Source of the DNA: a virus
Lineage: Duplodnaviria > Heunggongvirae > Uroviricota > Caudoviricetes
Length of the DNA stretch: 36,094 nucleotides
IMG/VR virus record: IMGVR_UViG_2869947659_000011
Reading direction: 5' to 3' (one strand)
The position numbers were made by a program, and so were the translations under genes. Positions 1,722-23,199 of the stretch are shown in pieces. Numbering within the stretch: the first letter of the stretch is position 1; every line of letters starts with the position of its first letter. The notes beneath the pieces are model-generated. The model worked only from the letters and a program-made list of their open reading frames with translations. It made no database searches and was not told the origin of the DNA.

Positions 1722-1732
1722 GGGCAACTCCA

Positions 1733-1928
1733 ACGGGATGCCCTCTGATGAGTGAATGGGGGAGGCGTGCTTTGAAGTGAATTTGTGGAAGGCTTCCAGT
1801 GTTGAGAAACATACGCCGCATTCTAGATTGTTACACTGATAATACTTTTGTCTCACGGTGTTTGAATCATTTTCCGGACGACTGGTGCGGATACGGGCAG
1901 ATGCGCCACAAAGCGGACAACGGAACAT
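1733..1928 (-). pseudogene. ogr: Ogr/Delta-family zinc-finger late-gene activator, 3' end interrupted by IS2 (native C-terminal codons continue at 396..332)
   Basis: MFRCPLCGASARIRTSRPENDSNTVRQKYYQCNNLECGVCF.. has the CxxC..CxxxxC layout of P2 Ogr. The track ORF (1692..1928) runs 13 codons into the IS2 right end. Removing IS2 and one copy of the target duplication restores an in-frame continuation ..SSEGIPWHELPTSHRGNNQMSLPLPQN with TAA at 332..334. Confidence 0.8.
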
Positions 1929-2840: not shown

Positions 2841-5800
2841 TTATTCTGATGTCACTCTTTGCGAGTGAGCTATTTTTAAATCAGCGTTTCCTTCAAATAC
2901 TATATTCAACTCATAGTTAAGAGTTAGCTTGAATTTATCTGAGTCACTTTTGATATTCTCTGAAGTGACATTTACTAACTTATTATTATCATATTCTCTA
3001 ATAATTAATTTAGTGAAGTAGTTATCCTTTACCACAAGAGAAAATGGTTGATTAACAAATGGTAAGAAGTAAACCTTACGGGTACCGGATTCAGTAGTTA
3101 TGTTCATAGAGCCATCATCATTTTTTCTCATTAGTTCTCTGAGGTTGGGATTATCGAAAAGCATACGATTATATTGCTGAAAGATCTCTTTACTCATCAC
3201 AAGAACCAGTTTGCCAGCCAAGTCAGCAGATGATTTTATGTGATCAATAAACATATTGAAATCTTCTATTACGGTATGTTGCGAACAGCCAGTGCTAAAT
3301 AAATTTGAAAGTATTATTCTCTGGATGTCCTTGAGAATTAAGTCTGCTTGAATATCACCTTCATTGATATAAGGGATGGATTCTATTCCTTCGGCATACG
3401 GTTCTTTATCTATCTTAATAGATATCTTATGTTTTGTGAAACAATCGCTAGCCTGCTTAAAATCAATAGATTTGAAAAGTGAAAGAGGGAGCGTTTTCTT
3501 GATGCGTTTACGAAGATGTTCTGATGTTTTACGTGCAGTGCTATCTAGTCGATGTACATCTATGGCAGCATCCTGAAGTCTCATATCAAGATCTTTCTTT
3601 AGCATGTTAATATGCTCTTGAAGCAACTTTCTTAAGTTTTCTTTTTTTGTTTGGAGATCGTCCAATGTTAAAGTCAGCTTGATTTTAGTGTATTCGATGG
3701 AGTTACAAATTTTTGATAATACTCCAATGAGTCGTTGCTTCTCACGATATGTTATATAGTTGTTTTCTATTGCTTCTTTTATTTCTTTTGATACGCTATC
3801 GTTCTTGTTAGAAAAAATTAATAATAGCTGAACCCATGATTGTTCCATATCAATAAATCCACAGTCAAAAACATTACTGTAAACTCTGCCCATCACCATG
3901 TCTGTTTTATCATAGTCACGTAAACGCCTTGCTAAACTATTCATCCACCCATTGTGCTCCATATTTTCAGACCATGTCCACAGGCAGATTCTAATTAATA
4001 TCTTGATTAGTTGGCTTGCATTATCAATTTCTTCAGTGGGAGTTTCATATCCACCGGTTTGGTCAATAAGTTTACCCTCTAAAATAAGTTTAATGTAATG
4101 TGTCATTAGTTTGTCAGAAGTATTGATTCTTGATGTCAGATAAAGACATGTGCATATACGCATGTCAGTCAACGCATTTATGATGGCAATATTGAACCAC
4201 TCTCTGTCTGAATTGAAGTTTAGTTTTTTGGATATGAAAAAAACCGGGTTAAAAAGCTGGCCTTTGTAACTGTATTTTTCTACCGAATGGCTGTCAATAT
4301 TCATTGAGTGCTGCCATCGGTTAATAAGATCGACGGCTGTATCAATAGTAGAAGGATCGCGAGTCTGTGTTGCATCAATAATCATCGATGGAAGTTCTTG
4401 TAGTTGCGTTTTGCAAAATAATTCAAATAAATCTGAATTCTCTGTATTGCAGAAACGAAAGTTTATGCTTTCTTGATATTGCTCCCAAACAGTGGTATAG
4501 GTTCTTAATATACGATTATAACGTGAACGAAGCGAGGCATTTAAGAGTGATTGGTTGTTTCGGAACCATTCTGTTAATATTGACCATTGTGAACGAGTAA
4601 TTCCCATATAGATACAAAGTTCATTGCTGATAAGATGTTTTCTATTATTGATAATACGCACTCCGCTCCAAAGACATAATTCAAAAAATCTTTCAGAAAG
4701 ATTAATTTTATCCATGGAATTATTTGATATTTTATAAACTTCATCTGAAAACTCATATTGAAAACTCCGTTCAAATAATTCTGTAGTGATCAGTAAGAAG
4801 TTATTGTTGGTATTATCATCTTGAAAAAAATACAAATCGCAGAGATTATTAAAGTTATTAATTAATGCAGAGATAGCATTGTCAAAACTAATGAGATCAG
4901 AATCCCGCAGATACATATACGTATCTGCTGTTATAGCCTGCATTGTAAGACTTACGGAAAAATCTCCTCCTTTAATCGGAGCCTTATAAAAACATTGCTT
5001 AAGTATTTTTATTAATAAGCTGTCTGGTTTGATATTTTTAACGCTAAAAAGTATCTTACCCGTGGATTCTGTTTCTTTTGTACGATTATCACCAATGACA
5101 AATGACGCAAAATGATTCTTCTTTTTTAGTTGGTAATTAATAAGATTAAGAGTAAGTTGAAAAGGACGGTGATATAAACTTAACTCATCTTCCTTAGAAT
5201 AACTGCTAGCCACAGATATGTATTCTCCTTTGTAATCGGCTTGCTTGATTTCTAAATTTGAATAGTTATGTTTTTGATAGATAGGGTATAACCTAAGCTT
5301 GGCTGAGATTTTGTTACAAATATGGGGCATTACTATTTCGAAGGCAATGTATCGCTTTATAATTATTTGCCGTTTTACATCATCAAGAATTTCAAGACTC
5401 ACGATAAAGAACCAAATAGAAAGAACTATGTTTATCAAAAGCCATAATATGCTGATTAGACAAGCTATACCATAAAGATAACTTCCAAAGACAGTTTTAA
5501 TTAGTACACTGAGAAGTATAAATCCTGATAAGAAAAGCCCGCTGAGTCCAGCAAGCATGAATCCTGAGTAACGCTGATAAGCAGTTTGGGCTATTTTTCT
5601 ATCTGCCTTTTTTTGGAATAAGACACTTACTAAACCTATAACAAGAGGGTATACAATACCAATAATTGTCAATTGGCCACTTAAAATGGTTGTTTGCCAT
5701 TCGGTTAATGAATGCCTAAACGGGAAATAATGTAAAAGATTATTTTTTATAAATAATTCGTTTAAATATCCAACATAAAGTAGTACAAATGAAAAAGCTG

Positions 5801-5960
5801 ATATGCAAAGTACTGATTTAACCGGTGAGGATGTTAATCTTATGATGTTTTTTTCAATAAAATTCCATTTTAAATTCGAATAAAATGGATTTTTAACCAT
5901 TTTATTACGAACATAGTTCTTTGCTAAAATCTCTGTTGCACTTAAAAATTGTCCAATCAT
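2841..5960 (-). CDS. Large hypothetical membrane-anchored protein (1039 aa), AT-rich cargo gene; candidate accessory/defence function, family unknown
   Basis: Uninterrupted 3120-nt ORF on the minus strand. Two sampled 60-nt lines give 28-33% GC against about 60% in a sampled tape-measure line. Four hydrophobic helix-length segments in the first 190 aa (e.g. SVLCISAFSFVLLYVGYL, LTIIGIVYPLVIGLVSVLF, FMLAGLSGLFLSGFILLSVLI, LYGIACLISILWLLINIVLSIWFFIVSL), then about 850 aa of soluble sequence with a coiled-coil-like stretch (..LTLDDLQTKKENLRKLLQEHINMLKKDLDMRLQDAAIDVHRLD..). No Walker A or other motif recognised by eye. Confidence 0.8.
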   Translation of the reverse strand: MIGQFLSATEILAKNYVRNKMVKNPFYSNLKWNFIEKNIIRLTSSPVKSVLCISAFSFVLLYVGYLNELFIKNNLLHYFPFRHSLTEWQTTILSGQLTIIGIVYPLVIGLVSVLFQKKADRKIAQTAYQRYSGFMLAGLSGLFLSGFILLSVLIKTVFGSYLYGIACLISILWLLINIVLSIWFFIVSLEILDDVKRQIIIKRYIAFEIVMPHICNKISAKLRLYPIYQKHNYSNLEIKQADYKGEYISVASSYSKEDELSLYHRPFQLTLNLINYQLKKKNHFASFVIGDNRTKETESTGKILFSVKNIKPDSLLIKILKQCFYKAPIKGGDFSVSLTMQAITADTYMYLRDSDLISFDNAISALINNFNNLCDLYFFQDDNTNNNFLLITTELFERSFQYEFSDEVYKISNNSMDKINLSERFFELCLWSGVRIINNRKHLISNELCIYMGITRSQWSILTEWFRNNQSLLNASLRSRYNRILRTYTTVWEQYQESINFRFCNTENSDLFELFCKTQLQELPSMIIDATQTRDPSTIDTAVDLINRWQHSMNIDSHSVEKYSYKGQLFNPVFFISKKLNFNSDREWFNIAIINALTDMRICTCLYLTSRINTSDKLMTHYIKLILEGKLIDQTGGYETPTEEIDNASQLIKILIRICLWTWSENMEHNGWMNSLARRLRDYDKTDMVMGRVYSNVFDCGFIDMEQSWVQLLLIFSNKNDSVSKEIKEAIENNYITYREKQRLIGVLSKICNSIEYTKIKLTLTLDDLQTKKENLRKLLQEHINMLKKDLDMRLQDAAIDVHRLDSTARKTSEHLRKRIKKTLPLSLFKSIDFKQASDCFTKHKISIKIDKEPYAEGIESIPYINEGDIQADLILKDIQRIILSNLFSTGCSQHTVIEDFNMFIDHIKSSADLAGKLVLVMSKEIFQQYNRMLFDNPNLRELMRKNDDGSMNITTESGTRKVYFLPFVNQPFSLVVKDNYFTKLIIREYDNNKLVNVTSENIKSDSDKFKLTLNYELNIVFEGNADLKIAHSQRVTSE

Positions 5961-6208
5961 GAATTACTCTTCTATAAAGTGTGGGTCTACTAACTAAACT
6001 GGAACTTTTACTATTGAGTCATATTCCCTTGGACGGGATGGACTGTGAAGATTATACTTGACTTCCTCTGTCATGTGGGAAAAACATCCGTATTATTGTT
6101 AGCATCTGGTTGATGCCCCAACCTCTGACATCTAGTGGGCTGATACATTATCTTTTGTTCTTACTGTCAGTGTAGAAGCACATCTCAAAAATAATATTTT
6201 TAAGAGAT

Positions 6209-7318
6209 TTATTCTGTTTCTGCTATCCATTCCGGGATTTTTGCTTCAAGTTCAAGCTGCGTGGTAAAGCCGCTGTTATCAATGGTGTGCTCGGCTTTTG
6301 CAATAGTCCAGTCCTGATAATCAATCTCGCTTTTAAAGCCTGTCACTGTGCCATGCATTTCGGGATAGAGTTCTGTACGACCACGCGCCAGCGTGATGGA
6401 GAATGATGCGGCTCCGCGTTGTAGCTGCTGCCACTTTGCCGCCGCTGCGCGTCTTGCTGCCTGCTCGTTCTGATAAGTCTTGCGTAACACAAACACGTTG
6501 CCTTCCGCACCTTCCATATAGTCGCCTTCCCGACTGCTGCTTTTCTCCTTTTTGGGTTTTGGCGGTTTGCGGCGTTTCACGCTGACTTTTTTCTTTTTCC
6601 CGTAATTAAGATCAAGCCAGTAGGCGCGTACCCCCGTATACGCCTCGCGGTCAGCAATGCGGAACTGATGGCGATCGCCGCTGCTGCGTGTAATGGCGAA
6701 CGAGGGCAACGGCTGCCCCTGTGCGTTCACGCCACCACCTGGCATGATGAATAACAGATTGCCGCTTTTTACCGTGGCGATTGCTCCCAGCATTTCCGCC
6801 ATGCGCGTAAGAAAGGACATGTCGCTTTCTTCGGTCTGGTCGGCGTGGTCGATTTCGATATCCATCAGCATTTCGCTGATTTGCGGTTTCAGACCGTACC
6901 GATGAGTGATGGCGGATACCACACGCTCAACGGTCACATCATGCCAGGACACCTCACGTTTAACGTTAAATTCATCCCGAAAATCTGCGCTTCTGGCTGA
7001 AACAGTCAGCCTGTCCGGCGGTCCTTCGTGAGCGATTTCATCAACAATGTAAGTGCCTTTTTCTGTCAGCGGTTCCCCTTTCCAGCCAATGAGAACCGTC
7101 AGACGCGCGCCCCGTGGCGGTAGCTGCAACTGACCATCCGCATCATCCAGCGTGATGGTGAGCTGGTCCGCCTCAAATCCCCGGTTGTCGGTCAGTTACA
7201 GGCTCATCAGGCGCTCCGCCACGCCTGACAGCGTTTTACCCTCCGAAAGAATATCAAAATCCGGCATTTTCACGGGGGCCGTGCCCTGACTGAGCAATTG
7301 CATGGTGGTGTCGGTCAT
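6209..7318 (-). pseudogene. D: P2 gpD-like tail protein with an in-frame TAA stop at 7196..7198
   Basis: Track ORFs 7196..7450 and 6209..7129 are in the same frame, separated only by one TAA. The downstream part (..GEPLTEKGTYIVDEIAHEGPP.. DMSFLTRMAEMLGAIATVKSGNLLF..) resembles P2 gpD. The probable start ATG at 7318 has a GGGAGGGAG Shine-Dalgarno just upstream. Confidence 0.7.
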
Positions 7319-7475
7319 CTGCTCCCTCCCTGTGCGGCATGGTCGCATGTGCGTGCGGAGGGGGTTACTGCTTTTTGTTGTCGCCGTGGCGGGAGAACGG
7401 CGCAGGGGTGAGATTACGCGCGTGGTGGGTGATGATTGTTGCTGAATCATTTAACGGATACAAGGGGCTGAAGCT

Positions 7476-8660
7476 ATGAGTGAAACTCGTTTTCATGGTG
7501 CCCGTGTTACGGAGAATACCGACCTGGTAACAGCGATTAACGATGTTGATTCCAGCGTTATCGGTATCGTGGCAACGGCGGATGATGCGGACGCGAAGCT
7601 GTTCCCGCTGAACAAGCCCACACTGCTGACCCGCGTCAATGACGTGCTGGGAAAATGCGGGACAACGGGGACGCTTTATCGTGCGCTTAAGGCCATCGCA
7701 GACCAGGTGAGCACAAAGGTGATCGTCGTTCGCGTGGCTGAACACAAAGAAGAAGACGGAAAGACGCAGGATCAACTGGTTATCGGTGGTTCTGAGGATG
7801 ACGGCAGCTATACGGGGATGTATGCGCTGCTTGTTGCAGAGCAGGATGAAAGCATCGGATACCGTCCGCGTATTCTGGCCGCGCCGGAGCTGGACACGGA
7901 GGCGGTAACAAAATCCCTGTGCGTGATTGCAGATAAACTGCGCGCGTTTGTGTATGCCTCATGTCATGGCTGTAACACGATGGCCGAGGCAATTACCTAC
8001 CGCCAGAAATTCAACGAACGTGAGGTGATGCTCTTATGGCCGGACTTCATCGCCTACAACCCGAAAAATGGCAAAAACGAAACGTTCCCCGCGCCTGCCT
8101 ATGCGTGCGGCCTTCGTGCGTACATTGACCATGAACAGGGATGGCACAAATCGCTGTCCAACGTTCCGGTTAAAAATGTGCTGGGGATGTCGAGGCATGT
8201 GTTCTGGTCGTTGCAGGCCGAAGACAGCGATGCCAACAGCCTCAACAACAAAGAAATCACGACCATTATTCGTCGCAACGGGTTCCGCTTCTGGGGTAAC
8301 CGCACACCGGAAACGAACGCCTACATCTTTGAGGTGTATACCCGAACCGCACAGGTGCTGGCTGATTCAATTGCGGAAGCGCAGTTTGAAACCATCGACA
8401 GTCCACTGACGCCTGCGAATGTGAAGGATGTTATCAGTGCCATCAGGGCAAAACTGGATTCACTGGTGACTGCCGGGAAACTGATTGGCGCGGAGTGCTG
8501 GTATGACGTGGTGGATAACAGCACCACGGATTTACGTCAGGGACGTGTGCGTATTCGCTACAAATATACGCCCGTTCCGCTACTGGAAGACATGGAGCTT
8601 TACCAGACGTTTACTGATGAATACTTTGAACCCGCATTTGCGGTGCTGGGAGGTGCCTGA
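7476..8660 (+). CDS. FI: Tail sheath protein (P2 gpFI-like)
   Basis: 394-aa ORF; the N-terminal region (..IGIVATADDADAKLFPLNKPTLLTRVND..) resembles P2 FI as remembered; size and position before the tail tube gene fit. Confidence 0.88.
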   Translation: MSETRFHGARVTENTDLVTAINDVDSSVIGIVATADDADAKLFPLNKPTLLTRVNDVLGKCGTTGTLYRALKAIADQVSTKVIVVRVAEHKEEDGKTQDQLVIGGSEDDGSYTGMYALLVAEQDESIGYRPRILAAPELDTEAVTKSLCVIADKLRAFVYASCHGCNTMAEAITYRQKFNEREVMLLWPDFIAYNPKNGKNETFPAPAYACGLRAYIDHEQGWHKSLSNVPVKNVLGMSRHVFWSLQAEDSDANSLNNKEITTIIRRNGFRFWGNRTPETNAYIFEVYTRTAQVLADSIAEAQFETIDSPLTPANVKDVISAIRAKLDSLVTAGKLIGAECWYDVVDNSTTDLRQGRVRIRYKYTPVPLLEDMELYQTFTDEYFEPAFAVLGGA

Positions 8661-9170
8661 TGGCTGTGCCAAAACATCTTCGCTTTTTTACGCTGTTTGT
8701 GGATGGTGAAAACGAAGTGGGTAATGTGACGTCCGTCACTCTGCCTAAGCTGACGCGCAAAACCGACAGCTACCGGGGTGGTGGCATGATGGGTGCGGTA
8801 AGTATTGATCTCGGTCTGGACGACTCCGCGCTTGATGCGAGCTTTGTCATGGGGGCGCAGTTCGTGAGCTGTTCCTTAAGTATGGCGGCACGATTGACGG
8901 CACGCTGCTGCGTTTTGCGGGTGAATACTACACCGATGCAGAAAGCGACCTGTATGAAGTCGAAATGCGCGGACGTGTGACGGAAATTGATATGGGGGAA
9001 GCCAAACAGGGCGAAGCCACATCACACACTTACGCCATTAAAACACCTACTACAAGCTGAGTGTTAACGATCGCCCGTTGTGGGAGATTGACCTGCTGAA
9101 CTTCATTTACCGGAAGGACGGCAAGGACATTGTGCCCGATCGCATCCGTTCCGCGCTTGGGCTTGGCTGA
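8660..9170 (+). pseudogene. FII: Tail tube protein (P2 gpFII-like), two frameshifts as sequenced
   Basis: P2 FII-like sequence is split over three frames: frame 1 to about 8855 (..LPKLTRKTDSYRGGGMMGAVSIDLGLDD..), frame 2 (..RFAGEYYTDAESDLYEVEMRGRVTEIDMGEAKQGE..), frame 3 (..TYYKLSVNDRPLWEIDLLNFIYRKDGKDIVPDRIRSALGLG*). The shifts sit at a G5 run (8851..8855) and an A4 run (9040..9043). Confidence 0.8.
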
Positions 9171-9225
9171 TAAGTAATATGCTGGCGGCGCAGTGCGTCG
9201 CCTCTGACTGAAAAGGAGACAACAG

Positions 9226-9600
9226 ATGAAAGACATCGATACTGAAACCCGGAATAACACCGTGGCGGATAATGTGACGGCAGTTGAGGATATGGCTGTC
9301 GAACGTGGCGTAAAACTGACCCGACCAATTGAGCGTGGTGGCGAAAAAATCACGTATGTGGAGATCACCGGGGCTATTGAGCAGGCTGGATCCCTGTGTG
9401 GTCTGTCGCTGTCTGATGTGCTGAATCTGAAAGCGGATACCATGTTCACGCTGTTGCCTCGCGTGACCTCGCCACGACTGGATGAAGTGATGATTAAAAA
9501 AATGTCGTCACGCGATTTTATTCAGTTGTGCGCTGTGGCTGTAAATTTTATGAGCGAGCCAGACTCTGGCGCGAAGAGCGTGCAGGAGACGGCAGCGTAA
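9226..9600 (+). CDS. E: Tail assembly chaperone (P2 gpE-like)
   Basis: 124-aa ORF between the tail tube and tape measure genes; the -1 frame ORF 9528..9764 overlaps its 3' end as expected for E/E'. Confidence 0.75.
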   Translation: MKDIDTETRNNTVADNVTAVEDMAVERGVKLTRPIERGGEKITYVEITGAIEQAGSLCGLSLSDVLNLKADTMFTLLPRVTSPRLDEVMIKKMSSRDFIQLCAVAVNFMSEPDSGAKSVQETAA

Positions 9601-9764
9601 TCACCCTGGTGTGCTTTGAGCACATCGAAGATCTGGTGGCGGATATTGCCGCCATTTTTAACTGGTCGCCCGCCGAAATCTTCATGATGACGCCCGGCGA
9701 AGTGGTTAGCTGGCGTGAGCGGGCGGCACTTCGTAGCGGGAATGCAGACAATGAAGACTCTTGA
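9528..9764 (+). CDS. E' extension, reached by programmed -1 frameshift from E (E+E' fusion)
   Basis: ORF in the -1 frame relative to E, opening just upstream of the slippery heptamer and ending inside the start of T. Confidence 0.55.
   Translation: MRCGCKFYERARLWREERAGDGSVITLVCFEHIEDLVADIAAIFNWSPAEIFMMTPGEVVSWRERAALRSGNADNEDS
9543..9549 (+). promoter_or_regulatory. Candidate -1 ribosomal slippery heptamer A_AAT_TTT for E to E'
   Basis: AAATTTT fits the X_XXY_YYZ pattern in the E frame (codons gta aat ttt) and lies 15 nt after the E' frame opens. Confidence 0.45.
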
Positions 9765-12558
9765 TATCCGGGTCGCTTTCAGCGCCGTTGACAGGCTGAC
9801 CCGGCCTGCCGAAAACGCCCGCCGCCTGATGGGGCAGTTTGGTGACTCCATCCAGCGAACGCAGGGGGCGATCAAAAATCTCGAGCGTCAGGCGCGATCA
9901 TTTGAGCGCGCCCGTGACGCTGTCAGTAAAGCGGATGCGGGCATCGTGAAAGCACGACGCCAGCTTAACGCCCTTAATCAGTTACAACGCACGGGTACAG
10001 TGCTCAGCGAAAAACAACAAAAGCTGATGCAGCAGTTAAGCACCCGGCTTGAACGCCTGAATGAATCGCGCACACGGGAAATTCAGAAAATGCGGGAGCT
10101 TGGCGGAGAGCTGAAACGCCACGGCATTTCCCTGACAGGCAGCGATAACACCATCCAGCAGGCCATCAGACGCACCGAACAGTACAACAACCAGCTTGAA
10201 CGCGAACGGCAGGCGCTTGCGCGTGTAACACGGGCGCGTGAGCGGTATTCGCGCGCGCAGGAAACAGCGGGAAAACTGAAAACAGGTGGTGCGCTGGCAA
10301 TTGGTGCGGCAGCGGCGGGCGGCTATGCTGCCGGGCGTTTTTTGCAGCCTGCGATCGGGTTCGGCAAAGAGATGTCCCGCGTTCAGGCACTGACGCGAAT
10401 CGACCAGAACAGCCTGCAGTTTAAGGCGCTGCGTGAGCAGGCGTTAAAACTTGGCTCTGAAACGCAGTTCACCGCAGGCGATGCCGCCAGTGGACAGGCA
10501 TTTCTTGCAATGGCTGGCTTTACACCACAGGCCATTCAGGCTGCGCTCCCTGGCGTACTGAGCATGGCAACGGCTGGCGGTATGGACCTCGGTGAGACGG
10601 CGGATATTGACTCAAATATTCTGACGCAGTTCGGTCTTTCTGCTGACCAGATGGACCGGGTCGGCGACACACTCACCGCAGCGTTTACCCGTACCAACAC
10701 TGACCTTCGCGCACTGGGTGAAACCATGAAATATGCAGGTCCGGTGGCGGGTAAGCTGGGAATATCTCTGGAGCAGGCCGCAGCGATGGCGGGCGTGCTG
10801 GCGAATATGGGTATCAGGGGGAGTGATGCTGGTACGGCAATGCGTGCCAGCCTGGCTCGTCTGGCATCACCGCCAAAGGCGGCAGCAGAGGCGCTGAAAG
10901 AGCTTGGCGTGTCTGTCTCGGATGCCGGGGGCAAAATGCGCCCGATGGAGGATGTGCTGGCTGACCTTTATAAAGCTACCCGCAAATACGGGGAAGTTGA
11001 CCGGGTATCGTTCTTTAAGGACATTGCCGGAGAAGAGGCTTTCACATCATTTATGGCCCTCGTTGATGCGGCAGGTGACGGCTCCTTACCCAAACTGAGA
11101 AAAGAACTTGAAGGCGCGCGCGGTGAGGCTGAACGCACGGCAAAGGTTATGGCCAACAACCTTGACGGCGATCTGAAATCACTCAGCAGTGCATGGGAAG
11201 GGTTGCGCATCCGCATTGCAGATCTGATTGACGGTCCGCTGCGTTCTGTCACGCAGTGGCTCACGCGTGTGGTATCAAAGGTGACGGCGCTGGCGCAGGC
11301 CCATCCCGCACTGACGCGCCAGCTACTGATTGCAGGCGGTGCATTGCTGGCAATGACTGCAACGGTTGGCTCGTTGTCGCTGGCTATTGGTGTGCTTGCT
11401 GGCCCGCTGGCAAAACTGCGTCTTGGTTTTTCCCTCCTGACCGGATCAATGAATGCTGTCAGGGTTCTGCCAGCACTATGGGGAATGGTGACGGGTTCCG
11501 TTTCTTTACTGGGAGGCGCTATCGGGGCGTTGTTCAGTCCGGTTGGTCTTATCGTGGCTGCGCTTGCCGGAGCTGCCGTTCTTATCTGGAAATACTGGGA
11601 TCCCATCAGGGCATTTTTTGCCGGGGTGTTCAGCGGGATTATGGAAAGGCTGACCCCGTTGCGCGAAACCTTTGAACGGTTTGGTCCTGTTTTTGACGCA
11701 ATCGCGAGTGGGATCAGCCAGGTGTTTAACTGGTTTAAATCGCTGCTGTCACCGATGGAGTCCAGCAAGGAAACTCTGGATAAATGTACCAGTGCTGGCG
11801 AGATATTCGGTAACGTTCTTGGCGGTGCGTTACAACTTGTTCTGACACCTGCAAAAATGTTGCTGGATACGCTGGCGTGGATACTTGAAAAGCTTGGTGT
11901 GCTTCCGGATGAAGCGGAAAGGGCGCGCAAGAAAATCGAAGACGCACAGCGTGCGGCCATTCTTCAGGACAAGGTTGCCTTGCTTCAGGGGGACCTGGCG
12001 AAAATCAATCCGCCGAAGCCTGTGGAAAATGGCAATGGCACCGGAGGTGATAACCCCAAAGACAATAAACCGCTCACAGACAGTAATACCGGTACGCTGC
12101 GCAGACTCAGCAAAATTGCTGATAACACAGGTAAGCTGGTTGAGGAGACGAAAAAACGCATTGGCCCCGGCGATATTGTCTTTAAAAACCTGCCCCGAGC
12201 ACTTGCTGTTCGTGGGGAGTGGCAGGAGCGGAAGATTGCGCAGGTCAGTAAGCCTGCCCCCGCAATTAATATCACACCCGTGGTTCCGGCTCCGCTGCCT
12301 CCGGCGCTGGTCCCTGTTGTTGCGGCCAGCTCCCGCCCGGTGGCGGAGGCTATACGATCTCCAGTGGCATCAGTTCCTGTAACTTCCCGTAACCGGGAGC
12401 CTGTTGCCTCCGGATTTGGTGGTGAAATTCATGTTCATCTGCATAACGTTGTTACGCAGAATCCCCGCGAACTGGCGAAACTGGTCGGTGAAATGGTCAG
12501 GGCAGAAATGGAACGGCGCGCCCGTGCCGGGCGTGGCTGTTTTTACGATAAAGATTGA
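9715..12558 (+). CDS. T: Tail tape measure protein (P2 gpT-like)
   Basis: 947-aa ORF; long coiled-coil N-terminal region and Gly/Ala-rich hydrophobic central block; position after E/E'. Confidence 0.88.
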   Translation: MSGRHFVAGMQTMKTLDIRVAFSAVDRLTRPAENARRLMGQFGDSIQRTQGAIKNLERQARSFERARDAVSKADAGIVKARRQLNALNQLQRTGTVLSEKQQKLMQQLSTRLERLNESRTREIQKMRELGGELKRHGISLTGSDNTIQQAIRRTEQYNNQLERERQALARVTRARERYSRAQETAGKLKTGGALAIGAAAAGGYAAGRFLQPAIGFGKEMSRVQALTRIDQNSLQFKALREQALKLGSETQFTAGDAASGQAFLAMAGFTPQAIQAALPGVLSMATAGGMDLGETADIDSNILTQFGLSADQMDRVGDTLTAAFTRTNTDLRALGETMKYAGPVAGKLGISLEQAAAMAGVLANMGIRGSDAGTAMRASLARLASPPKAAAEALKELGVSVSDAGGKMRPMEDVLADLYKATRKYGEVDRVSFFKDIAGEEAFTSFMALVDAAGDGSLPKLRKELEGARGEAERTAKVMANNLDGDLKSLSSAWEGLRIRIADLIDGPLRSVTQWLTRVVSKVTALAQAHPALTRQLLIAGGALLAMTATVGSLSLAIGVLAGPLAKLRLGFSLLTGSMNAVRVLPALWGMVTGSVSLLGGAIGALFSPVGLIVAALAGAAVLIWKYWDPIRAFFAGVFSGIMERLTPLRETFERFGPVFDAIASGISQVFNWFKSLLSPMESSKETLDKCTSAGEIFGNVLGGALQLVLTPAKMLLDTLAWILEKLGVLPDEAERARKKIEDAQRAAILQDKVALLQGDLAKINPPKPVENGNGTGGDNPKDNKPLTDSNTGTLRRLSKIADNTGKLVEETKKRIGPGDIVFKNLPRALAVRGEWQERKIAQVSKPAPAINITPVVPAPLPPALVPVVAASSRPVAEAIRSPVASVPVTSRNREPVASGFGGEIHVHLHNVVTQNPRELAKLVGEMVRAEMERRARAGRGCFYDKD

Positions 12559-12564
12559 GGAGTC

Positions 12565-13059
12565 ATGGCCATGATGATGATCTACGGCATGTTTGTTTTT
12601 GAGCTGCGCACGCTGCCGCATCAGCAGTTACAGCAAAACAAAAGCTGGCGGCATGTGAAAAATGAACGCGTTAACCGTTCAGCAAGCTGGCAGTATATCG
12701 GTGCAGGTGATGATCGCATCGTTCTTTCTGGTGTGCTTTATCCTGAAATTACAGGTGGCGAAGTGTCGCTGTCGCTGCTGACTACGCAGGCGTATACAGG
12801 ACGACCCTGGCCTTTGATTGATGGCGTCGGGCAGATTTACGGCATGTATGTCCTGACTGAAACGAATACGACCCGCTCCGAGTTTGATCGCTACGGTAAG
12901 GCGAAAAAGATAGAATTTTCACTGACTCTTGAACGCTGTGATGAGGATTTGCGGGAGCGCCTGCAATCCTCATCGTTCAGTGATATGCTGTCCGGCTTCA
13001 AAGATAAGGTGACATCATCTCTTAACAGCGCGGCCAGTTCAGTTAAAGGGCTGTTCTGA
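12565..13059 (+). CDS. U: Tail protein (P2 gpU-like)
   Basis: 164-aa ORF directly after T, same size class as P2 U and similar as remembered. Confidence 0.8.
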   Translation: MAMMMIYGMFVFELRTLPHQQLQQNKSWRHVKNERVNRSASWQYIGAGDDRIVLSGVLYPEITGGEVSLSLLTTQAYTGRPWPLIDGVGQIYGMYVLTETNTTRSEFDRYGKAKKIEFSLTLERCDEDLRERLQSSSFSDMLSGFKDKVTSSLNSAASSVKGLF

Positions 13060-13068
13060 TTTAACACA

Positions 13069-13098
13069 AAAACCGCTAATGGTCAGATTAGCGGTTTT
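13069..13098. terminator. Perfect 12-bp-stem hairpin between the convergent U and invertase genes (bidirectional terminator candidate)
   Basis: AAAACCGCTAAT-GGTCAG-ATTAGCGGTTTT; the right arm overlaps the last codons of the invertase gene. Confidence 0.5.
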
Positions 13099-13687
13099 CA
13101 TTTTCCTGAGTCTGCCCGGTTGTTTCTTCAGTCTGTATATCGCCTACAGGGTGATAACGATAAATCGTCGATGTGCCAATGCCGTAAATTATTGCCAGTT
13201 GTTTTCTGTCGTGCCCGTTTTTGATTAGCCTTGCTATTTGCTCATGCTGTTCTTTTGTCAGCTTCGGTCGACGTCCGCCTGTGCGCCCCCTTGCGCGCGC
13301 TGCCGCCAGCCCGGCCAGTGTACGTTCAACAATTAATTCACGTTCCATTTCAGCCAGGGCACCCATCACGTGGAAGAAAAAACGCCCCATTGGAGAAGAT
13401 GTGTCTATGCTGTCGGTCAGACTGCGAAAATTAATCCCTCGCTCCCGTAGTTCCCCGACGAGAGAAATCAGATGTTTCATGCTTCGCCCGAGGCGATCCA
13501 GTTTCCAGACAACCAGCGTGTCACCTTTTTGAAGGCGCTTTAAAGCGCGTTTTAATCCCGGTCGGTCTGTCTTTGTCCCGCTTAATTTATCTTCAAATAT
13601 TTGTTCACATCCTGCACAAACAAGAGCGTTTCGTTGCAGGTCTGTATTCTGGTCATTTGTTGATACCCTTACATAGCCAATCAGCAC
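13088..13687 (-). CDS. Serine DNA invertase, Gin/Cin/Pin/Hin family
   Basis: From the GTG at 13687 the product begins MLIGYVRVSTNDQNTDLQRNALVCAGCEQIFEDKLSGTKTDRPGLKRAL..., which closely matches the remembered N-termini of Mu Gin and e14 Pin (catalytic Ser in YVRVST, C-terminal HTH). The track start (TTG at 13705) is probably 6 codons too long. Confidence 0.9.
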   Translation of the reverse strand: MLIGYVRVSTNDQNTDLQRNALVCAGCEQIFEDKLSGTKTDRPGLKRALKRLQKGDTLVVWKLDRLGRSMKHLISLVGELRERGINFRSLTDSIDTSSPMGRFFFHVMGALAEMERELIVERTLAGLAAARARGRTGGRRPKLTKEQHEQIARLIKNGHDRKQLAIIYGIGTSTIYRYHPVGDIQTEETTGQTQENENR

Positions 13688-13741
13688 ACTGAATCTCCCG
13701 TCCAAAAGCGCAAATCATGCCATGCAGGCCAGAAACGGCCA

Positions 13742-13767
13742 TTATTTAAAACCTCGGTTTACAGGAA
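13742..13767. promoter_or_regulatory. Left inversion crossover site (gix/pix-like), between the invertase gene and the silent fibre cassette
   Basis: TTATTTAAAACCTCGGTTTACAGGAA differs at about 2 positions from Mu gixR as remembered and is the inverted partner of the site at 16417..16442 (shared 12-bp core ACCTCGGTTTAC / GTAAACCGAGGT). Confidence 0.7.
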
Positions 13768-14627
13768 ACGGTAAACAGGGCTGGTAACGCCGTGCAAAAA
13801 AATGGCGATACCTTGTCCGGTGGGCTTACTTTTGAAAATGACTCAATCCTTGCCTGGATTCGAAATACTGACTGGGCGAAGATTGGATTTAAAAATGATG
13901 CCGATGGTGACACTGATTCATACATGTGGTTTGAAACAGGCGACAACGGCAATGAATATTTCAAATGGAGAAGCCGCCAGAGCACCACAACAAAAGACCT
14001 GATGACGCTGAAATGGGATGCACTAAATATTCTTGTTAATGCTGTCATTAATGGCAGTCTTGGAGTTGGTTCGACGAATGCGTTAGGTGGTAGCTCTATT
14101 GTTCTTGGTGATAATGACACCGGATTTAAACAGAATGGAGACGGTATTCTGGATGTTTATGCTAATAGTCAGCGTGTATTCCGCTTTCAGAATGGAGTGG
14201 CTATTGCTTTTAAAAATATTCAGGCCGGGGATGGTAAAAAATTCACGCTATCCAGCTCCAACAACTCCACAAAGAATGCAACGTTTAATTTATGGGGTGC
14301 TTCAACCCGTCCAGTAGTTGCAGAGTTAGGCGATGAGGCAGGATGGCATTTCTATAGCCAGCGAAATACAGATAACTCGGTAATATTTTCTGTTAACGGT
14401 CAGATACAGCCCAGCAACTGGGGAATTTTGATTCACGCTATGTAAAAGATGTTCGCCTGGGTACGCGTGTTGTTCAATTGATGGCGCGTGGTGGTCGTTA
14501 TGAAAAAGCCGGACACGCAATTACCGGATTAAGAATCATTGGTGAAGTAGATGGCGATGATGAAGCCATCTTCAGACCAATACAAAAATACATCAATGGC
14601 ACATGGTATAACGTCGCACAGGTGTAA
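13768..14627 (+). pseudogene. Alternative tail-fibre C-terminal segment (Sv'-like), promoterless silent copy, frameshifted near 14424..14428
   Basis: The reading frame is open from the crossover site (..NLGLQETVNRAGNAVQKNGDTLSGGLTF..), in phase with H across the site. The conserved fibre C-terminus ..DSRYVKDVRLGTRVVQLMARGGRYEKAGHAITGLRIIGEVDGDDEAIFRPIQKYINGTWYNVAQV* is in the next frame after a missing base in GGAATTTT. Confidence 0.6.
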
Positions 14628-15792: not shown

Positions 15793-17706
15793 TTAATTCA
15801 TCACGGTTTCCGTTAACTGAACCCGTAACGACATAACCTGACCTGTCAGACCAGCCGGACCATTCCATGTCTGAACAGATGACAGACCGCCAAGGCGAAT
15901 ACCTGTAATAAACCTTGAGTTACATTCTGCCCGCGTATATGCACCAACATCTCCCGCTGAAGGTTTTCGTGTCGTGGTATAGAAATCTGACCAACCTAAT
16001 TCAACCCCATAACCATCACGAGCCGACCTGTAGGAAATGCCACCATTTTTATAATTCACACGGAATTGTACGGCAGGACAGCTACCAGCATTTATATTAA
16101 AGTGAAGAATTAATGCAGATGCACCACCAATCAGGGCGTTATATGCACCACTATCCCAATTCCATCCAACGGATGTATCACCATTAACAGTATTACCTGT
16201 TTGTCGGAGTGCAAATGCATTGACATTTTTGGCACTAATTGAAATATCGCTAGAACCATCAAAACCAACTCCAGCAATTTTTCGTGCTGTTTTCAGCTTT
16301 GTTGCAGTAGCGGCATTGCCGGACAGTTCCCCAGAAAGGCCACCGCTGAATGTTTGTCGATTGGTCCAGGTATTCGCTGTACTGAGTAACGGTATTTTCT
16401 CCCCGCTTGTGCCGAGTTCTCGTAAACCGAGGTATTCGATAACGGCAGCAACGGTCGATTTCGCAAGAATATCCCGCCCGACTTTTGTCAGGGTTGCCAG
16501 GCTGGCGACATCATTCCCCGTAAAATACGGAAACCTGTCTGCCGCAGTAGCAAGCCCGGCCAGCGCCGTCAGGGTGGCATCTTTCGGTTGCTTACCCGCA
16601 AGCGCGTTAGTCATGGTGGTCGCAAAATTCGGGGCGTTTCCCAGCGCCGCCGCTAACTCGTTCAGCGTATTCAGTGCGTCAGGTGACGAATCTACAAGGG
16701 CGGCAATCGCAGCCATAACGAAAGCCGTGCTTGCGATTTGGGTATTATTCGTTCCCTGTCGCGCAGTTGGCGTTGTTGGCGTTCCGGTCAGCGCAGGACT
16801 GTTTAAGGGCGCTTTCTTGTTCGTTTCATCCATTACCGCCTTAACCGCTTTCGATGTCGCGGCCAGTGTTTCAGACGTGCTGTTGGTGGCACTACTGAGC
16901 TGGACTATCCCTTTTTGTGCCGTCGTGGCGTCCTGAGCGGTATATTTTGCGTTAGCAAGGTCATACGCGGCCTTTACTGCTTTCGGCGTTGCAGCCTGCG
17001 TTTCAGACGTGCTGTTGGTGGCGCTACTGAGCTGGACAAGGCCTTTTCGCGTCGTGCTGGCATCCTGCGCAGTATATTTACCGTTAGCAAGATCATACGC
17101 GGCCTTTACTGCTTTCGGCGTTGCAGCCTGCGTTTCAGACACGCTGTTAGTGGCGCTACTGAGTTGAACAAAGCCTTTTGCGGTCAGCGAGGCGTCCGGG
17201 TGACGTCGTGACTGTTCATGCTCTTTCAGTTTGTCATCCACGTAATCCACTGTGGCCATCACCATGGTGTTGTCCACGGTAAGCGCCACGGTGGCAGTGC
17301 TGGATACGGTCAGAATGGTGCGAAATGTTTGTGCACGACCGGACCCTTCGGCAACGGCTGGCTTGTAACTTTCGGCAGTATTTCCCACCGCGATTAAATC
17401 GCCGTGCTCATCAAATACACCAATTTCCCGGATCCAGAATCCGCCCGTTTCAGGAGGAATAACCAGCTCCGCAATAATGCGGTTCTGATGTGTTGCGTCC
17501 AGGATGACGCGATTAACAGTATGTCGCCACACCTCATGCACCAGACGGGTCTGCTTACTGTCTGGTGTGGGCAACGTGCCGCCACCGTCGCCCACGGCCA
17601 TATGAGTCAGGCGGACAGGCTTACCATCTGGCGCGGCTACCTGAGCTAATTTTTTTGCACCCGTATCGGTGATAATGGTTTTAAATTTTCGTGTTGTGGT
17701 ACTCAT
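15793..17706 (-). CDS. H: Tail fibre protein (P2 gpH-like): constant N-terminal part joined to the currently expressed variable C-terminal segment
   Basis: 637-aa ORF; three tandem 38-aa repeats of the phage tail-fibre repeat type (..KGLVQLSSATNSTSETQAATPKAVKAAYDLANAKYTAQDA..); the crossover site is embedded in frame at codon ~424. Confidence 0.88.
   Translation of the reverse strand: MSTTTRKFKTIITDTGAKKLAQVAAPDGKPVRLTHMAVGDGGGTLPTPDSKQTRLVHEVWRHTVNRVILDATHQNRIIAELVIPPETGGFWIREIGVFDEHGDLIAVGNTAESYKPAVAEGSGRAQTFRTILTVSSTATVALTVDNTMVMATVDYVDDKLKEHEQSRRHPDASLTAKGFVQLSSATNSVSETQAATPKAVKAAYDLANGKYTAQDASTTRKGLVQLSSATNSTSETQAATPKAVKAAYDLANAKYTAQDATTAQKGIVQLSSATNSTSETLAATSKAVKAVMDETNKKAPLNSPALTGTPTTPTARQGTNNTQIASTAFVMAAIAALVDSSPDALNTLNELAAALGNAPNFATTMTNALAGKQPKDATLTALAGLATAADRFPYFTGNDVASLATLTKVGRDILAKSTVAAVIEYLGLRELGTSGEKIPLLSTANTWTNRQTFSGGLSGELSGNAATATKLKTARKIAGVGFDGSSDISISAKNVNAFALRQTGNTVNGDTSVGWNWDSGAYNALIGGASALILHFNINAGSCPAVQFRVNYKNGGISYRSARDGYGVELGWSDFYTTTRKPSAGDVGAYTRAECNSRFITGIRLGGLSSVQTWNGPAGLTGQVMSLRVQLTETVMN
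16417..16442. promoter_or_regulatory. Right inversion crossover site (gix/pix-like) inside the tail fibre gene
   Basis: TTCTCGTAAACCGAGGTATTCGATAA is the inverted partner of 13742..13767 and encodes ..EYLGLRE.. in H; the Sv' frame reads ..NLGLQE.. across its partner, so inversion keeps the frame. Confidence 0.65.
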
Positions 17707-17708
17707 GC

Positions 17709-18239
17709 TTAATCGCCTGGATAAATGGTAATAACTTCACCGTCATAAGTTGCCGCCGCTGCGAAAATATCCCCCGGAATTTCCTGAATGATATTCAGCC
17801 CTGTCATGTGGCGGCTGACCGGGCGGGCATCAGCAATCAACCGCTCCATTTCCAGATACATTTCCTCCGTCACGCCACTGTCCAGCGTGCCGACTTCAAC
17901 GGTAAATGTTCCCGGTTCTCCGCCGAACTCCCACCACTCAGACACGCGAATGAGGTATCCCAGCGGCTCAATGGCCCAGCGCAGTGCGCTGATGGTCCCT
18001 TTGTGTCGGTGTATCAGCCATGCATCACGAATAACCTGTCGCTTTGTCTCTTCCGGCCAGTTGCGATCCCAGCGGTCAACGGAAAACGCCCAGGCGAGAT
18101 AAGGCAGCAGATGCACCGGGCAGGTGTCCGGCGACCACAGCGTGTTGAGGTCTACCGGAATGTCTGTAATGCGTGTTCCGACGGCTTCGGCACAACGCAT
18201 GAAATTGCTGGCTGATGGTGGTAACAACGAATTACTCAT
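17709..18239 (-). CDS. I: Baseplate assembly protein (P2 gpI-like)
   Basis: Track ORF 17709..18272; start taken at the ATG at 18239 (MSNSLLPP..), giving 176 aa as in P2 I; position between J and H. Confidence 0.78.
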   Translation of the reverse strand: MSNSLLPPSASNFMRCAEAVGTRITDIPVDLNTLWSPDTCPVHLLPYLAWAFSVDRWDRNWPEETKRQVIRDAWLIHRHKGTISALRWAIEPLGYLIRVSEWWEFGGEPGTFTVEVGTLDSGVTEEMYLEMERLIADARPVSRHMTGLNIIQEIPGDIFAAAATYDGEVITIYPGD

Positions 18240-19128
18240 TGCGTCCACCTTCGCTGATGGTGAATGACTCACAGCGCGCCGCCTGTATGTCGCTGATGGC
18301 CATATTCTGTGTGGGTTCGATTATCTCCACGCGTTGCACACCGTGCACATGCAGTGCGGCAGCAATGGCGGACAACGCCACGTCCTGACCGATAAGCCCC
18401 TGCTCAGCCAGCCACTTCCTGAACGACGATTCAGCCGCGGCCAGAATAGGTTCGGATTCCGGGCCGGGGTAAAAGTACAGTTTTGCATTCAGCCGCCATG
18501 TCACGATTCTGGCACTCTGTACGGTCAGGCGGTCGGCCACCGGGCGGGTATCCTCTGCATTCAGAACGGCGCGAACGGTATTAAGCAACGCCTCCGTTGC
18601 TGTGCCGTCGCCCTCAGTGGACAGGATGGAAACCGTCACGTTGGCCGGAGACGGGCTGATGGCCCGCGCATCGCGTACCAGACCGCTGGCGCTGCGTGCA
18701 AAATACTCGTATGCACCTGACGGGCCAGCAACACTCAGACCGTCATATGCCCGTTGCGCCCGTAGTCTCAGCGAGGTGTCACTTTCCATCACTGCATCGG
18801 TGGTATCCGTTGCCGGAGTGATAACCAGGCGCTTTGTGTTCATATTGCCCGCGAGGTTGTCCAGGTCTGTCCCGGCGCTGTGGCTTAGCATGCAGGCGCG
18901 TGCACCCTCATTGACCCGCTGGCGTAACAGCATTTCACGAAACGACATGGTTTGAGCGATAACGTTAAGGGGTTCCGATTCCAGCTCCAGCGCGGCGGAA
19001 ACGGCTTCACGCTGTTCGGCGGGATAGGACGCAATCATCATGGCCTTTGTGTCAGCCAGAATTGCCTCAAAGTCAGGCTCCGCGATGATGGCGGGTTCCG
19101 GTAACTGTGAAAGGTCAACGGCAGGCAT
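18232..19128 (-). CDS. J: Baseplate assembly protein (P2 gpJ-like)
   Basis: 298-aa ORF; size and position in the V-W-J-I-H block. Confidence 0.82.
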   Translation of the reverse strand: MPAVDLSQLPEPAIIAEPDFEAILADTKAMMIASYPAEQREAVSAALELESEPLNVIAQTMSFREMLLRQRVNEGARACMLSHSAGTDLDNLAGNMNTKRLVITPATDTTDAVMESDTSLRLRAQRAYDGLSVAGPSGAYEYFARSASGLVRDARAISPSPANVTVSILSTEGDGTATEALLNTVRAVLNAEDTRPVADRLTVQSARIVTWRLNAKLYFYPGPESEPILAAAESSFRKWLAEQGLIGQDVALSAIAAALHVHGVQRVEIIEPTQNMAISDIQAARCESFTISEGGRNE

Positions 19129-19131
19129 GAT

Positions 19132-19482
19132 TTACTCCCTCAGCGTGATGGTTAATTCAACATTCTGCATGGTCTGCATGACAGTGCCCGACAGCGTCAC
19201 CCCGGCGCGGCCTCCTGCCTTCCAGACAACGTCGATAGCGTCCAGGGCAATGCGGGGTTCCCATCGTGTCAGCGCAATCACGGCAGCACTCATGCATTGC
19301 AGACGCGTGGTGTTATTCATGGGTTCGTCAATCAAATCAGGCACAAGGCTGCCATATTCCCGTCGCATAACCCGGCTTGCCAGCGGGGTGGTCAGGATGT
19401 CCCTGACTGACTGTTTCAGGTGCTCCATATCGTTCAGGTTTCCCGTTCCGTCCGGGTTCATTCCTGTGTAGCGGGTTGTCAC
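19132..19482 (-). CDS. W: Baseplate wedge protein (P2 gpW-like)
   Basis: 116-aa ORF; size and position match P2 W. Confidence 0.82.
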   Translation of the reverse strand: MTTRYTGMNPDGTGNLNDMEHLKQSVRDILTTPLASRVMRREYGSLVPDLIDEPMNNTTRLQCMSAAVIALTRWEPRIALDAIDVVWKAGGRAGVTLSGTVMQTMQNVELTITLRE

Positions 19483-22406: not shown

Positions 22407-22408
22407 TG

Positions 22409-23103: not shown

Positions 23104-23199
23104 GGGGTTCACTCCTGAAAAAAAATCGGGCGGTGGGTGCGCGGTGTAAACGGTCACGGAGTCAAACCGGAACACCGCGCACGCCGCCCGCTGACGGGG

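Follow-up and report, generated by a model that had tools for sequence, protein, structure and literature searches.

Introduction

In the P2-like phages P2 and Fels-2, the tail genes form the F operon, pF-FI-FII-E/E′-T-U-D-ogr, which includes an E/E′ pair linked by a −1 frameshift and a gene for an Ogr-type activator. A TGT-N12-ACA activator site is located ~80 nt upstream of FI, and in Fels-2 the tail-fibre segment is separated from the F operon by an invertase gene. A second P2 control region, pP/pO, serves the genes P and O from one central dyad, with the annotated transcription starts each positioned 55.5 nt from the dyad centre. The G segment of Mu, the C segment of P1, and the Hin segment of Salmonella are associated with a Gin-family invertase and a pair of gix-like sites. 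Closer relatives with a reordered tail region are P88 and phiSM (Xuanwuvirus), which are functional phages, P88 being inducible and phiSM spontaneously active (PMC5285337; PMC6456863).

Here, we analyse a 36,094-nt stretch of viral DNA (IMG/VR record IMGVR_UViG_2869947659_000011), referred to as the window, in which FI through U are flipped compared to P2 and Fels-2.

Results

Organization of the tail block

Gene calls were made across the window by tblastn with P2 proteins and by Pfam profiles (Table 1). By homology, the window has a P2-like (Peduoviridae) tail module comprising FI, FII, E/E′, T, U, and D. FI-FII-E/E′-T-U occupy the plus strand between 7476 and 13059 in an order flipped relative to P2, while O through H, D, and ogr are encoded on the minus strand and P and Q again on the plus strand. 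These gene identities and strands agree with a preliminary description of the locus, as does the 157-bp distance it gave for D and FI: exactly 157 nt lie between the two ATG codons, whose first bases are 7318 (D) and 7476 (FI). It had also named D and ogr together as flanking late genes; both are on the minus strand, but they are not adjacent in the window, where 4.2 kb of cargo separates them. The ogr product scores 44 bits with NCBIfam NF007241, under the cut-off of that model.

The co-directional order FI-FII-E-T-U-D has no match in the window, where D is opposite in strand to FI. As a result of the inversion of FI-U, D forms a transcription unit of its own that diverges from FI, and the FI operon closes with U and a putative terminator of its own. 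Flipping the block yields the Fels-2 order H-G-G′-H′-invertase-FI-FII-E-T-U-D-ogr, in line with the earlier expectation that a P2-type order would be restored. Further, an E/E′ −1 frameshift is plausible: the slippery heptamer reads A AAT TTT in the frame of E, and the −1 frame remains open until 9764. The P88 annotation includes two CDS matching E and E′.

Table 1. Features of the tail block and its surroundings in the window (promoter elements and activator sites are predictions)
Feature	Position	Strand	Basis and remarks
ogr-type late activator gene	1928..1731	−	tblastn with P2 Ogr: 38% identity, E 2.6e-11
D, tail spike/hub ("late control D")	7318..6209	−	Phage_GPD; 48% identity to P2 D, 97% to P88 D
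D–FI divergent control region	7319–7475	.	157 bp
Putative D-promoter −10, GACCAT after TG	7339–7344	−	43.5 nt from dyad centre; predicted start ~7332
Dyad GTTGT-N12-AGAAC, putative Ogr-type activator site	7377–7398	.	Centre 7387.5
Putative FI-promoter −10, GATGAT	7431–7436	+	43.5 nt from dyad centre; predicted start ~7443
FI, tail sheath	7476–8660	+	Phage_sheath_1; 45% identity to P2 FI
FII, tail tube	8660–~9170	+	Phage_tube; broken in window copy
E, chaperone	9226–9600	+	Phage_TAC_7, weak match
E′, extension of E	to 9764	+	Putative −1 slippery heptamer AAATTTT, 9543–9549
T, tape measure protein	9751–12558	+	PhageMin_Tail; 98% identity to P88 T, 33% to P2 T
U, last gene of inverted operon	12565–13059	+	Phage_P2_GpU, E 5.5e-39; 99% identity to P88 U
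Gin/Cin/Hin-type serine DNA invertase, convergent with U	13088–13687	−	Pfam Resolvase and HTH_7; 99% identity to P88 invertase
Invertible tail-fibre segment	13742–16442	.	gix-like pair 13742–13767 and 16417–16442; adjoins the block, outside it
Second dyad GTTGT-N12-AGAAC	26056–26077	.	Centre of O–P divergent spacer; internal comparison for late-promoter type

The inverted order is shared by a clade of P2-like phages

Between D and Q, including the invertase gene, P88 and phiSM display the same order and strands as the window, together with the same D–FI spacer and hairpin. Identity between P88 and the window reaches 96% over 6213–13779 and 98% over 16422–29388, while the integrase/repressor module differs (43% and 37% identity). 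In total, ~25 kb of the 35.8 kb of P88 match the window, with a collinear structural region that is 96–98% identical; the match is limited to ~25 kb because the window has a different early/immunity region, into which IS elements have inserted. For membership in one genus, ICTV requires ~70% nucleotide identity over the full length.

A single collinear megablast alignment from D through the invertase is obtained with P88, P884B11, phiSM, 500465-2, PhiR44_2, and Chuche at 93–98% identity, and the annotations of P88-like phages place these genes on the same strands as in the window. The inverted order is the norm in the reference phages P88, phiSM, P884B11, ST16-OXA48phi5.4, SEN5, and phiT5282H and occurs in four ICTV genera, Xuanwuvirus, Reipivirus, Senquatrovirus, and Novemvirus. 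As these are genera of the Peduoviridae, the non-canonical order does not exclude the window phage from this family. Among complete E. coli genomes, a quarter (1356 of 5426, at a coverage of at least 80%) carry the D–FI junction; it is intact in 1358 of the 1382 matching E. coli records, the other 24 being without full coverage.

A scan of species-representative genomes extends this pattern to diverged prophages; it was evaluated for the best 80 of 459 confirmed loci, which leaves room for exceptions. Within these 80, 53 loci from ~25 genera of Enterobacterales encode a D at least 61% identical to P88 D, and all 53 are inverted, with FI on the opposite strand ~150–165 bp from D. Conversely, every locus of this set with a D at most 54% identical to P88 D and an identified FI is co-directional, and both orientations were not found among close relatives, all 53 clade loci sharing one orientation.

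When D and FI were each analysed by neighbour joining, a plain distance method applied here with no support values, all inverted loci grouped in one clade, and no canonical locus was nested within it. The co-directional order is kept in P2, Fels-2, and Gegavirus as well as in the outgroups Burkholderia KS5 and a VHML-like Vibrio phage; with canonical outgroups, the inverted order was rejected as the primitive state. One ancient inversion is the best reading of this combined clade and outgroup pattern. The inverted order is thus the fixed, ancestral layout of a common P88-like group and ordinary for the window phage. The preliminary description had allowed that the order might be ancestral to the lineage, which is borne out by the P88-like references and a quarter of the complete E. 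coli genomes; its description of the block as inverted stands with respect to P2, but within the lineage P88-like reference genomes show the order as the norm. The gene order cleanly marks a deep P2-like subclade and might be of use in taxonomy or annotation. The Xuanwuvirus, P88, and phiSM papers, a survey of the diversity of P2-like viruses from 2026, and tailocin papers were checked, and none was found to describe the inversion explicitly; the arrangement is not peculiar to the window genome.

A conserved dyad at the centre of the D–FI spacer

The preliminary description had pointed to the D–FI spacer as a place to look for promoters, and a conserved, symmetric layout of putative late promoters is present there. 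Spacer length varies only between 145 and 164 bp in 25 aligned relatives. By eye, no perfect TGT-N12-ACA was found in the D–FI spacer; a site with one mismatch emerged via phylogenetic footprinting. In the clade, the dyad consensus is GTTGT-N12-ACAAC, i.e., TGT-N12-ACA of the P2 Ogr-box type, from which the window copy deviates by its AGAAC arm. The dyad scores 6–10 of 10 in all 55 inverted-order sequences (the window and 54 loci) and at least 7 in 54 of them. A pattern search of the window returned five matches versus 1.28 expected, two of which fall in the middle of the spacers between D and FI and between O and P. In the window, a homologue of the Ogr/Delta-type zinc-finger activators is accompanied by two TGT-N12-ACA-type late-promoter dyads with one mismatch each, both putative sites predicted from sequence.

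Candidate −10 hexamers flank the dyad symmetrically. On the FI side, loci of the inverted clade and canonical pF regions alike conserve gAnnAT at this offset; in canonical relatives (the annotated pF of P2, Fels-2, and others), the dyad is 77–84 nt upstream of FI and the hexamer at +43.5. On the D side, dyad-anchored alignments reveal nAnnAT preceded by TG, as well as a GCGCGCG block, at a constant distance. The hexamers carry 1.4–1.6 bits of information at positions 2 and 6, compared to a background of 0.45–0.6 bits. In the window, an identical layout is found in the O–P spacer, with a central dyad and hexamers on either side. The same symmetry characterizes pP/pO of P2, the spacers measuring 157–173 bp; while pP/pO serves P and O, the window pair would serve D and FI as putative promoters.

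From this conservation and by analogy to P2, we infer that one activator bound at the single dyad drives FI through U rightward and D, then ogr, leftward. Alternatively, D could lie outside the control of the dyad, which would serve FI only, and be transcribed from an independent promoter, e.g., a constitutive or early one, or by read-through. In the window, the D side offers only GACCAT as a −10, which is a poor match, and a generic sigma-70 scan of the D–FI spacer detected no strong promoter, both of which can be taken in favour of this alternative, although the latter result is also expected for activator-dependent promoters, since these have no −35 element. We consider independent transcription of D rather unlikely: the D-side element keeps its mirror-symmetric offset clade-wide with TG, A2, and T6 conserved, the length of the spacer is maintained, and pP/pO is a documented case of one site with two divergent late promoters. 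Moreover, read-through into D has no upstream source and is impossible because FI points away from D. If control by the shared dyad is true, the D–FI spacer would be a compact example of one activator site governing two divergent late promoters after operon inversion.

The U–invertase junction and the tail-fibre segment

At the other end of the block, U and the invertase gene converge at a perfect hairpin, as had been noted previously. The hairpin (13069–13098; AAAACCGCTAAT-GGTCAG-ATTAGCGGTTTT) has a perfect 12-bp stem and a dG of −16.2 kcal/mol. It is flanked by AAAAA upstream and TTTTCATTTT downstream, i.e., by a 5′ A-run and a 3′ T-run, and is positioned between the stop codons of U (13057–13059) and the invertase (13088–13090), the latter within the 3′ arm. 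This putative bidirectional intrinsic terminator would serve both U and the invertase gene. Many relatives have a strong but non-homologous hairpin directly after U.

Just 5 of the 53 loci with the inverted order (among the best 80 of 459 confirmed loci) have an invertase gene near U. The site where the tail-fibre genes meet U is a hot spot of variable cargo, with the invertase in the window, a DUF262 gene in Reipivirus, and nothing in SEN5 and phiT5282H. As in Fels-2, the invertase gene of the window separates the tail-fibre segment from the F genes. The tail-fibre segment encodes alternative H C-termini and G genes on opposite strands. A search for the gix core with up to three mismatches over the whole window detected only 13748–13764 and 16420–16436 and none at the block junctions; likewise, no inverted repeat joining 7319–7475 with 13059–13100 was found. 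Both searches corroborate the earlier report of junctions free of such elements. Like the Mu G, P1 C, and Hin segments, the window thus combines a Gin-family invertase with a gix-like pair, but here the sites flank the tail-fibre segment, whereas FI-U is without sites and has a fixed orientation in all relatives. Flipping of FI-U by the invertase was rejected on account of the absent crossover sites and of the lack of the invertase in most clade members. The FI-U block is not switchable, and the neighbouring Gin-type invertase serves the tail-fibre segment only.

Origin of the inversion

Taken together, the window very probably represents a P88-like, Xuanwuvirus-type prophage in which the F unit was inverted once in an ancestor and fixed since, with the single dyad driving the promoters of D and FI, and in which the individual copy is decaying. 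The inverted unit would have comprised pF, FI, FII, E/E′, T, and U in the ancestor of a large enterobacterial P2-like clade. As pF moved with the inversion, its dyad-symmetric Ogr-type site came to lie beside the 5′ end of D, where one activator could define two mirror-image late promoters. The rightward transcript would run from FI to U and end at the hairpin, while the leftward transcript would cover D and, in intact relatives, ogr. With less assurance, we lean towards the broader reading of a single, ancient, clade-defining inversion in Peduoviridae (at least four ICTV genera and ~25 host genera), viable through conversion of the pF dyad to bidirectional use as a mirror of pP/pO, which would leave D (with ogr) as a separate Ogr-activated unit.

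A sheath-to-U module acquired in opposite orientation from another P2-like phage by mosaic exchange is a distinctly improbable source of the block. Phage genomes are mosaic, a hot spot of variable cargo lies next to U, and T is the most diverged gene at 33% identity to P2; however, FI, FII, and U resemble P2 and canonical relatives to the same degree as D, J, and I outside the block, FI and D yield the same clade in their trees, and the pF-type promoter travelled with FI. A foreign tail module was rejected, as block genes (33–48% identity to P2) and flanking virion genes (26–70%) diverge from P2 to a similar extent.

An assembly artefact or a recent strain-specific inversion, for instance via IS elements or the adjacent invertase, has next to no probability: three IS elements and several homopolymer indels could mean an error-prone assembly or a plastic locus and a serine invertase gene abuts one junction, but the same order is present in isolated phages, in the 1356 complete E. 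coli genomes, and in the 53 diverged prophages (among the best 80 of 459 loci), the junctions contain neither inverted repeats nor gix-like sites, none of the three IS elements is at a junction, and the invertase is near U in so few inverted loci of that set. Misassembly and recent inversion were rejected because of this conservation. As P88-like references and a quarter of E. coli genomes match, the block is neither a strain anomaly nor a candidate misassembly or recent rearrangement, and its "inverted" order gives no ground for flagging it as any of these or as an invertase substrate.

In-place inversion and module exchange lead to the same present-day architecture, and the junction sequences are too diverged to discriminate between them.

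State of the window copy

Compared to P88 and phiSM, the window copy is without the replication gene A, harbours three IS elements, has 4.2 kb of inserted DNA separating D from ogr, and has apparently inactivated D, FII, N, and M genes. D is interrupted by an in-frame TAA at codon 41 (7196–7198), which is TCA in relatives and constitutes one stop inside the P88/P2 HSP. FII has lost one base in each of two homopolymers, G6 to G5 near 8850–8855 and A5 to A4 near 9039–9043. N and M contain indels as well, and homopolymer sequencing errors may be an alternative source of these changes. The window copy thus appears to be a defective, decaying prophage. The cargo between D and ogr consists of IS1 and a 1039-aa orphan ORF, for which sequence searches of Pfam, PADLOC, NCBIfam, and PDB returned no match. 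Beyond this cargo, 1735–1968 of the window, the ogr region, aligns to the P88 DNA immediately downstream of D.

Orientation of the FI-U block in the window

The window contains a P2-like prophage in reverse orientation, as determined by tblastn with P2 proteins and by Pfam searches. FI to U lie on the strand opposite to D, with 157 nt between the start codons of D and FI. On the 3' side of U lies a perfect 12-bp hairpin (13069-13098, dG -16.2 kcal/mol), and the convergent invertase gene reaches into its 3' arm with the stop codon. The preliminary description, made from the sequence alone, had the opposed strands, the gap, and the hairpin right, except that D and ogr are not adjacent in the window but are separated by 4.2 kb of cargo. 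The reading frame of E includes a slippery heptamer, A AAT TTT (9543-9549).

Positions of genes, insertion elements, and promoter-like elements in the window
Feature	Position	Strand	Basis
IS3-family element	448-1721
ogr	1928..1731	-	tblastn with P2 proteins / Pfam
IS1	~2055-2752
D	7318..6209	-	tblastn with P2 proteins / Pfam
D-side -10-like hexamer GACCAT	reverse complement of 7339-7344	-
RefSeq small CDS, probably spurious	7365-7496 region (2529-2660 in comparison locus L001)
FI-side -10-like hexamer GATGAT	7431-7436	+
FI	7476-8660	+	tblastn with P2 proteins / Pfam
FII	8660-~9170	+	tblastn with P2 proteins / Pfam
E	9226-9600; E' frame open to 9764	+	tblastn / Pfam
T	9751-12558	+	tblastn with P2 proteins / Pfam
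U	12565-13059	+	tblastn with P2 proteins / Pfam
Serine invertase	13687..13088	-	tblastn / Pfam
H-G tail-fibre genes, I, J, W, V, S, R, lysis genes, X, L, M, N, O	up to 25978	-	tblastn / Pfam
P and Q	26140-28937	+	tblastn with P2 proteins / Pfam
IS3-family element	31012-31851
C and int	33745-35089	+	tblastn with P2 proteins / Pfam

The inverted order is an old trait of P88-type phages

Megablast of 6000-14500 against phage genomes returned one collinear alignment each for P88, P884B11, phiSM, 500465-2, PhiR44_2, and Chuche, extending from D through the invertase gene at 93-98% identity. In the annotations of P88 and phiSM, the strands are the same as in the window. Since P88 is inducible and phiSM spontaneously active (PMC5285337; PMC6456863), the inverted order is compatible with function. 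Of 5426 complete E. coli genomes, 1356 cover at least 80% of a 1-kb probe spanning the D|FI junction; among the 1382 records that matched, all but 24 cover it in full. The U|invertase junction is found in 621 genomes. This collinearity in phages and complete genomes excludes both a misassembly and a recent strain-specific inversion. Hence, the inversion pointed out in the preliminary description is confirmed. It is no oddity of this genome, the same order being common to P88-type phages and E. coli prophages. The alternative raised in that description, an arrangement ancestral to the lineage, proved correct, so that the earlier interpretation as a whole is supported only in part.

In the phage collection, the D proteins that come next in similarity (62-76% identical) are those of Reipivirus, Novemvirus, and Senquatrovirus, all three of which carry FI-U inverted against D; in Gegavirus, with a D 51% identical, the order is canonical. 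Species-representative genomes were scanned with an alignment of D, and the loci were typed by tblastn. Among the best 80 of 459 loci, all those whose D shares 61% identity or more with that of P88 are inverted (n = 53), the start of FI lying ~150-165 bp away from D on the opposite strand; wherever D is 54% identical or less and FI was found, the two are co-directional. Inverted loci occur in Salmonella, Klebsiella, Enterobacter, Citrobacter, Kosakonia, Pantoea, Erwinia, Pectobacterium, Brenneria, Serratia, Yersinia, Hafnia, Edwardsiella, Providencia, Morganella, Xenorhabdus, Photorhabdus, and others. Neighbour-joining trees built from D and from FI both group them into one clade without any canonical locus inside. 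Because the canonical order is that of P2, Fels-2, Burkholderia KS5, and a VHML-like Vibrio phage, it is the ancestral one, and the inverted order is derived. The arrangement of Fels-2 is exactly that before the inversion, down to an invertase that separates the tail-fibre segment from FI. An origin by module exchange instead of inversion in place is improbable, as the block genes (33-48% identity to P2 by tblastn) are about as diverged as the flanking virion genes (26-70%), with no sign of a foreign module.

The inverted order can be read directly from the annotation of many reference genomes, yet a search of the papers on P88, phiSM, Xuanwuvirus, and tailocins and of a 2026 survey of P2-like virus diversity found no discussion of the inversion. 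Only mildly new are the inferred bidirectional promoter with a shared dyad and the use of gene order as a clade marker.

A 226-kb contig labelled Vagococcus sp. WN89Y, a Firmicute (NZ_JBQPOM010000071.1, locus L007 of the comparison), carries a P88-like prophage with a D 99% identical to P88 D and the same U-proximal hairpin. This assembly is probably contaminated or mislabelled.

The FI-U block is not an invertible segment

A search for an inverted repeat linking both block junctions found none, and the only gix-like sequences in the window (13742-13767 and 16417-16442) lie away from the block borders, in line with what had been noted for the junctions. This inverted pair instead brackets a 2.65-kb invertible tail-fibre segment; its left site contains CTGTAAACCGAGGTTTT, the core of the Mu gix site. 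The segment encodes alternative H C-termini and G chaperones, and the copies nearest to their P2 counterparts are now frameshifted and in the non-expressed orientation. Most members of the inverted clade have no invertase gene. The FI-U block is no switch, and the inversion event is too old for the sequence to reveal its mechanism.

A conserved dyad between D and FI

In an alignment of 25 diverse members of the inverted clade, the D|FI spacer is constrained to 145-164 bp and contains a few conserved blocks amid diverged sequence. Its centre is formed by a single dyad, GTTGT-N12-ACAAC, a putative Ogr-type activator site present in the window with one mismatch (7377-7398, centre 7387.5). Its TGT-N12-ACA form is that of the activator sites annotated in P2 late promoters. 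Gap-free, dyad-anchored alignment places a -10-like hexamer, nAnnAT, with its start 43.5 nt from the dyad centre on both sides, positions 2 and 6 reaching 1.4-1.6 bits of information content versus 0.45-0.6 bits background. In relatives, the D-side hexamer follows a conserved TG and a GCGCGCG block. Thus, the stretch 7319-7475, proposed earlier as a place to look for promoters, yielded a conserved dyad with mirror-placed -10-like hexamers.

The same dyad-N32-hexamer layout is found in the O|P spacer of the window (dyad 26056-26077) and in the P2 pP/pO region; there, the distance between the dyad centre and the annotated transcription start is 55.5 nt in either direction. In canonical relatives, P2 pF and Fels-2 among them, the dyad precedes FI by 77-84 nt and the hexamer stands at +43.5; the FI side of the inverted layout (78.5-88.5 nt) agrees with this.

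Judged from these motifs, the simplest reading would be a bidirectional late promoter serving D and FI-U from a shared dyad. pF would have moved along with the inverted block, and its symmetric activator site may have gained a mirror promoter for D. The late genes would then have a second bidirectional promoter, its starts predicted near 7443 (+) and 7332 (-). U would now close the FI operon at its own putative terminator, the hairpin; many relatives possess a strong, non-homologous hairpin at the same place. As ogr directly follows D in intact relatives, late read-through into ogr would be preserved.

In P88 and many E. coli genomes, RefSeq lists a short “hypothetical protein” within the spacer between D and FI. 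This CDS is probably spurious, because its conservation resembles promoter elements rather than coding sequence.

State of the prophage copy and its cargo

Several essential late genes of this copy are inactivated. D carries a nonsense mutation at codon 41 (TCA>TAA, 7196-7198), FII two 1-bp deletions, both in homopolymer runs, N a deletion of 1 bp, and M a tandem duplication of 20 bp; the changes in these last two genes are at positions 23275 and 24948. Moreover, three IS elements lie within the prophage, the P2 A-type replication gene A is absent from the window, and ParM is truncated. Either the prophage is decaying or defective, or part of the indels are (homopolymer) sequencing errors; the shared inverted arrangement holds in both cases. 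Repressor C and integrase share just 37% and 43% identity with their P88 counterparts and 40% and 45% with those of P2, and therefore a P88-type structural module is joined to a different immunity and integration module.

The cargo between D and ogr contains a 1039-aa ORF (2841-5960, - strand) that lies in an island of 31-34% GC. The N-terminal region of its product has several hydrophobic, transmembrane-like stretches, and a large soluble part comes after them. Sequence searches of Pfam, PADLOC, NCBIfam, and PDB gave no match. The ORF belongs to an uncharacterised family of ~1040-1070 aa seen in Enterobacterales only, and its closest cluster (99% identical, 692 member sequences) bears the source name “MFS transporter [Shigella boydii]”. 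Together with the IS load, this naming suggests a Shigella-like host. Among 5426 complete E. coli genomes, just 5 have the same cargo at the D-ogr site. The ORF is a candidate moron or defence gene.
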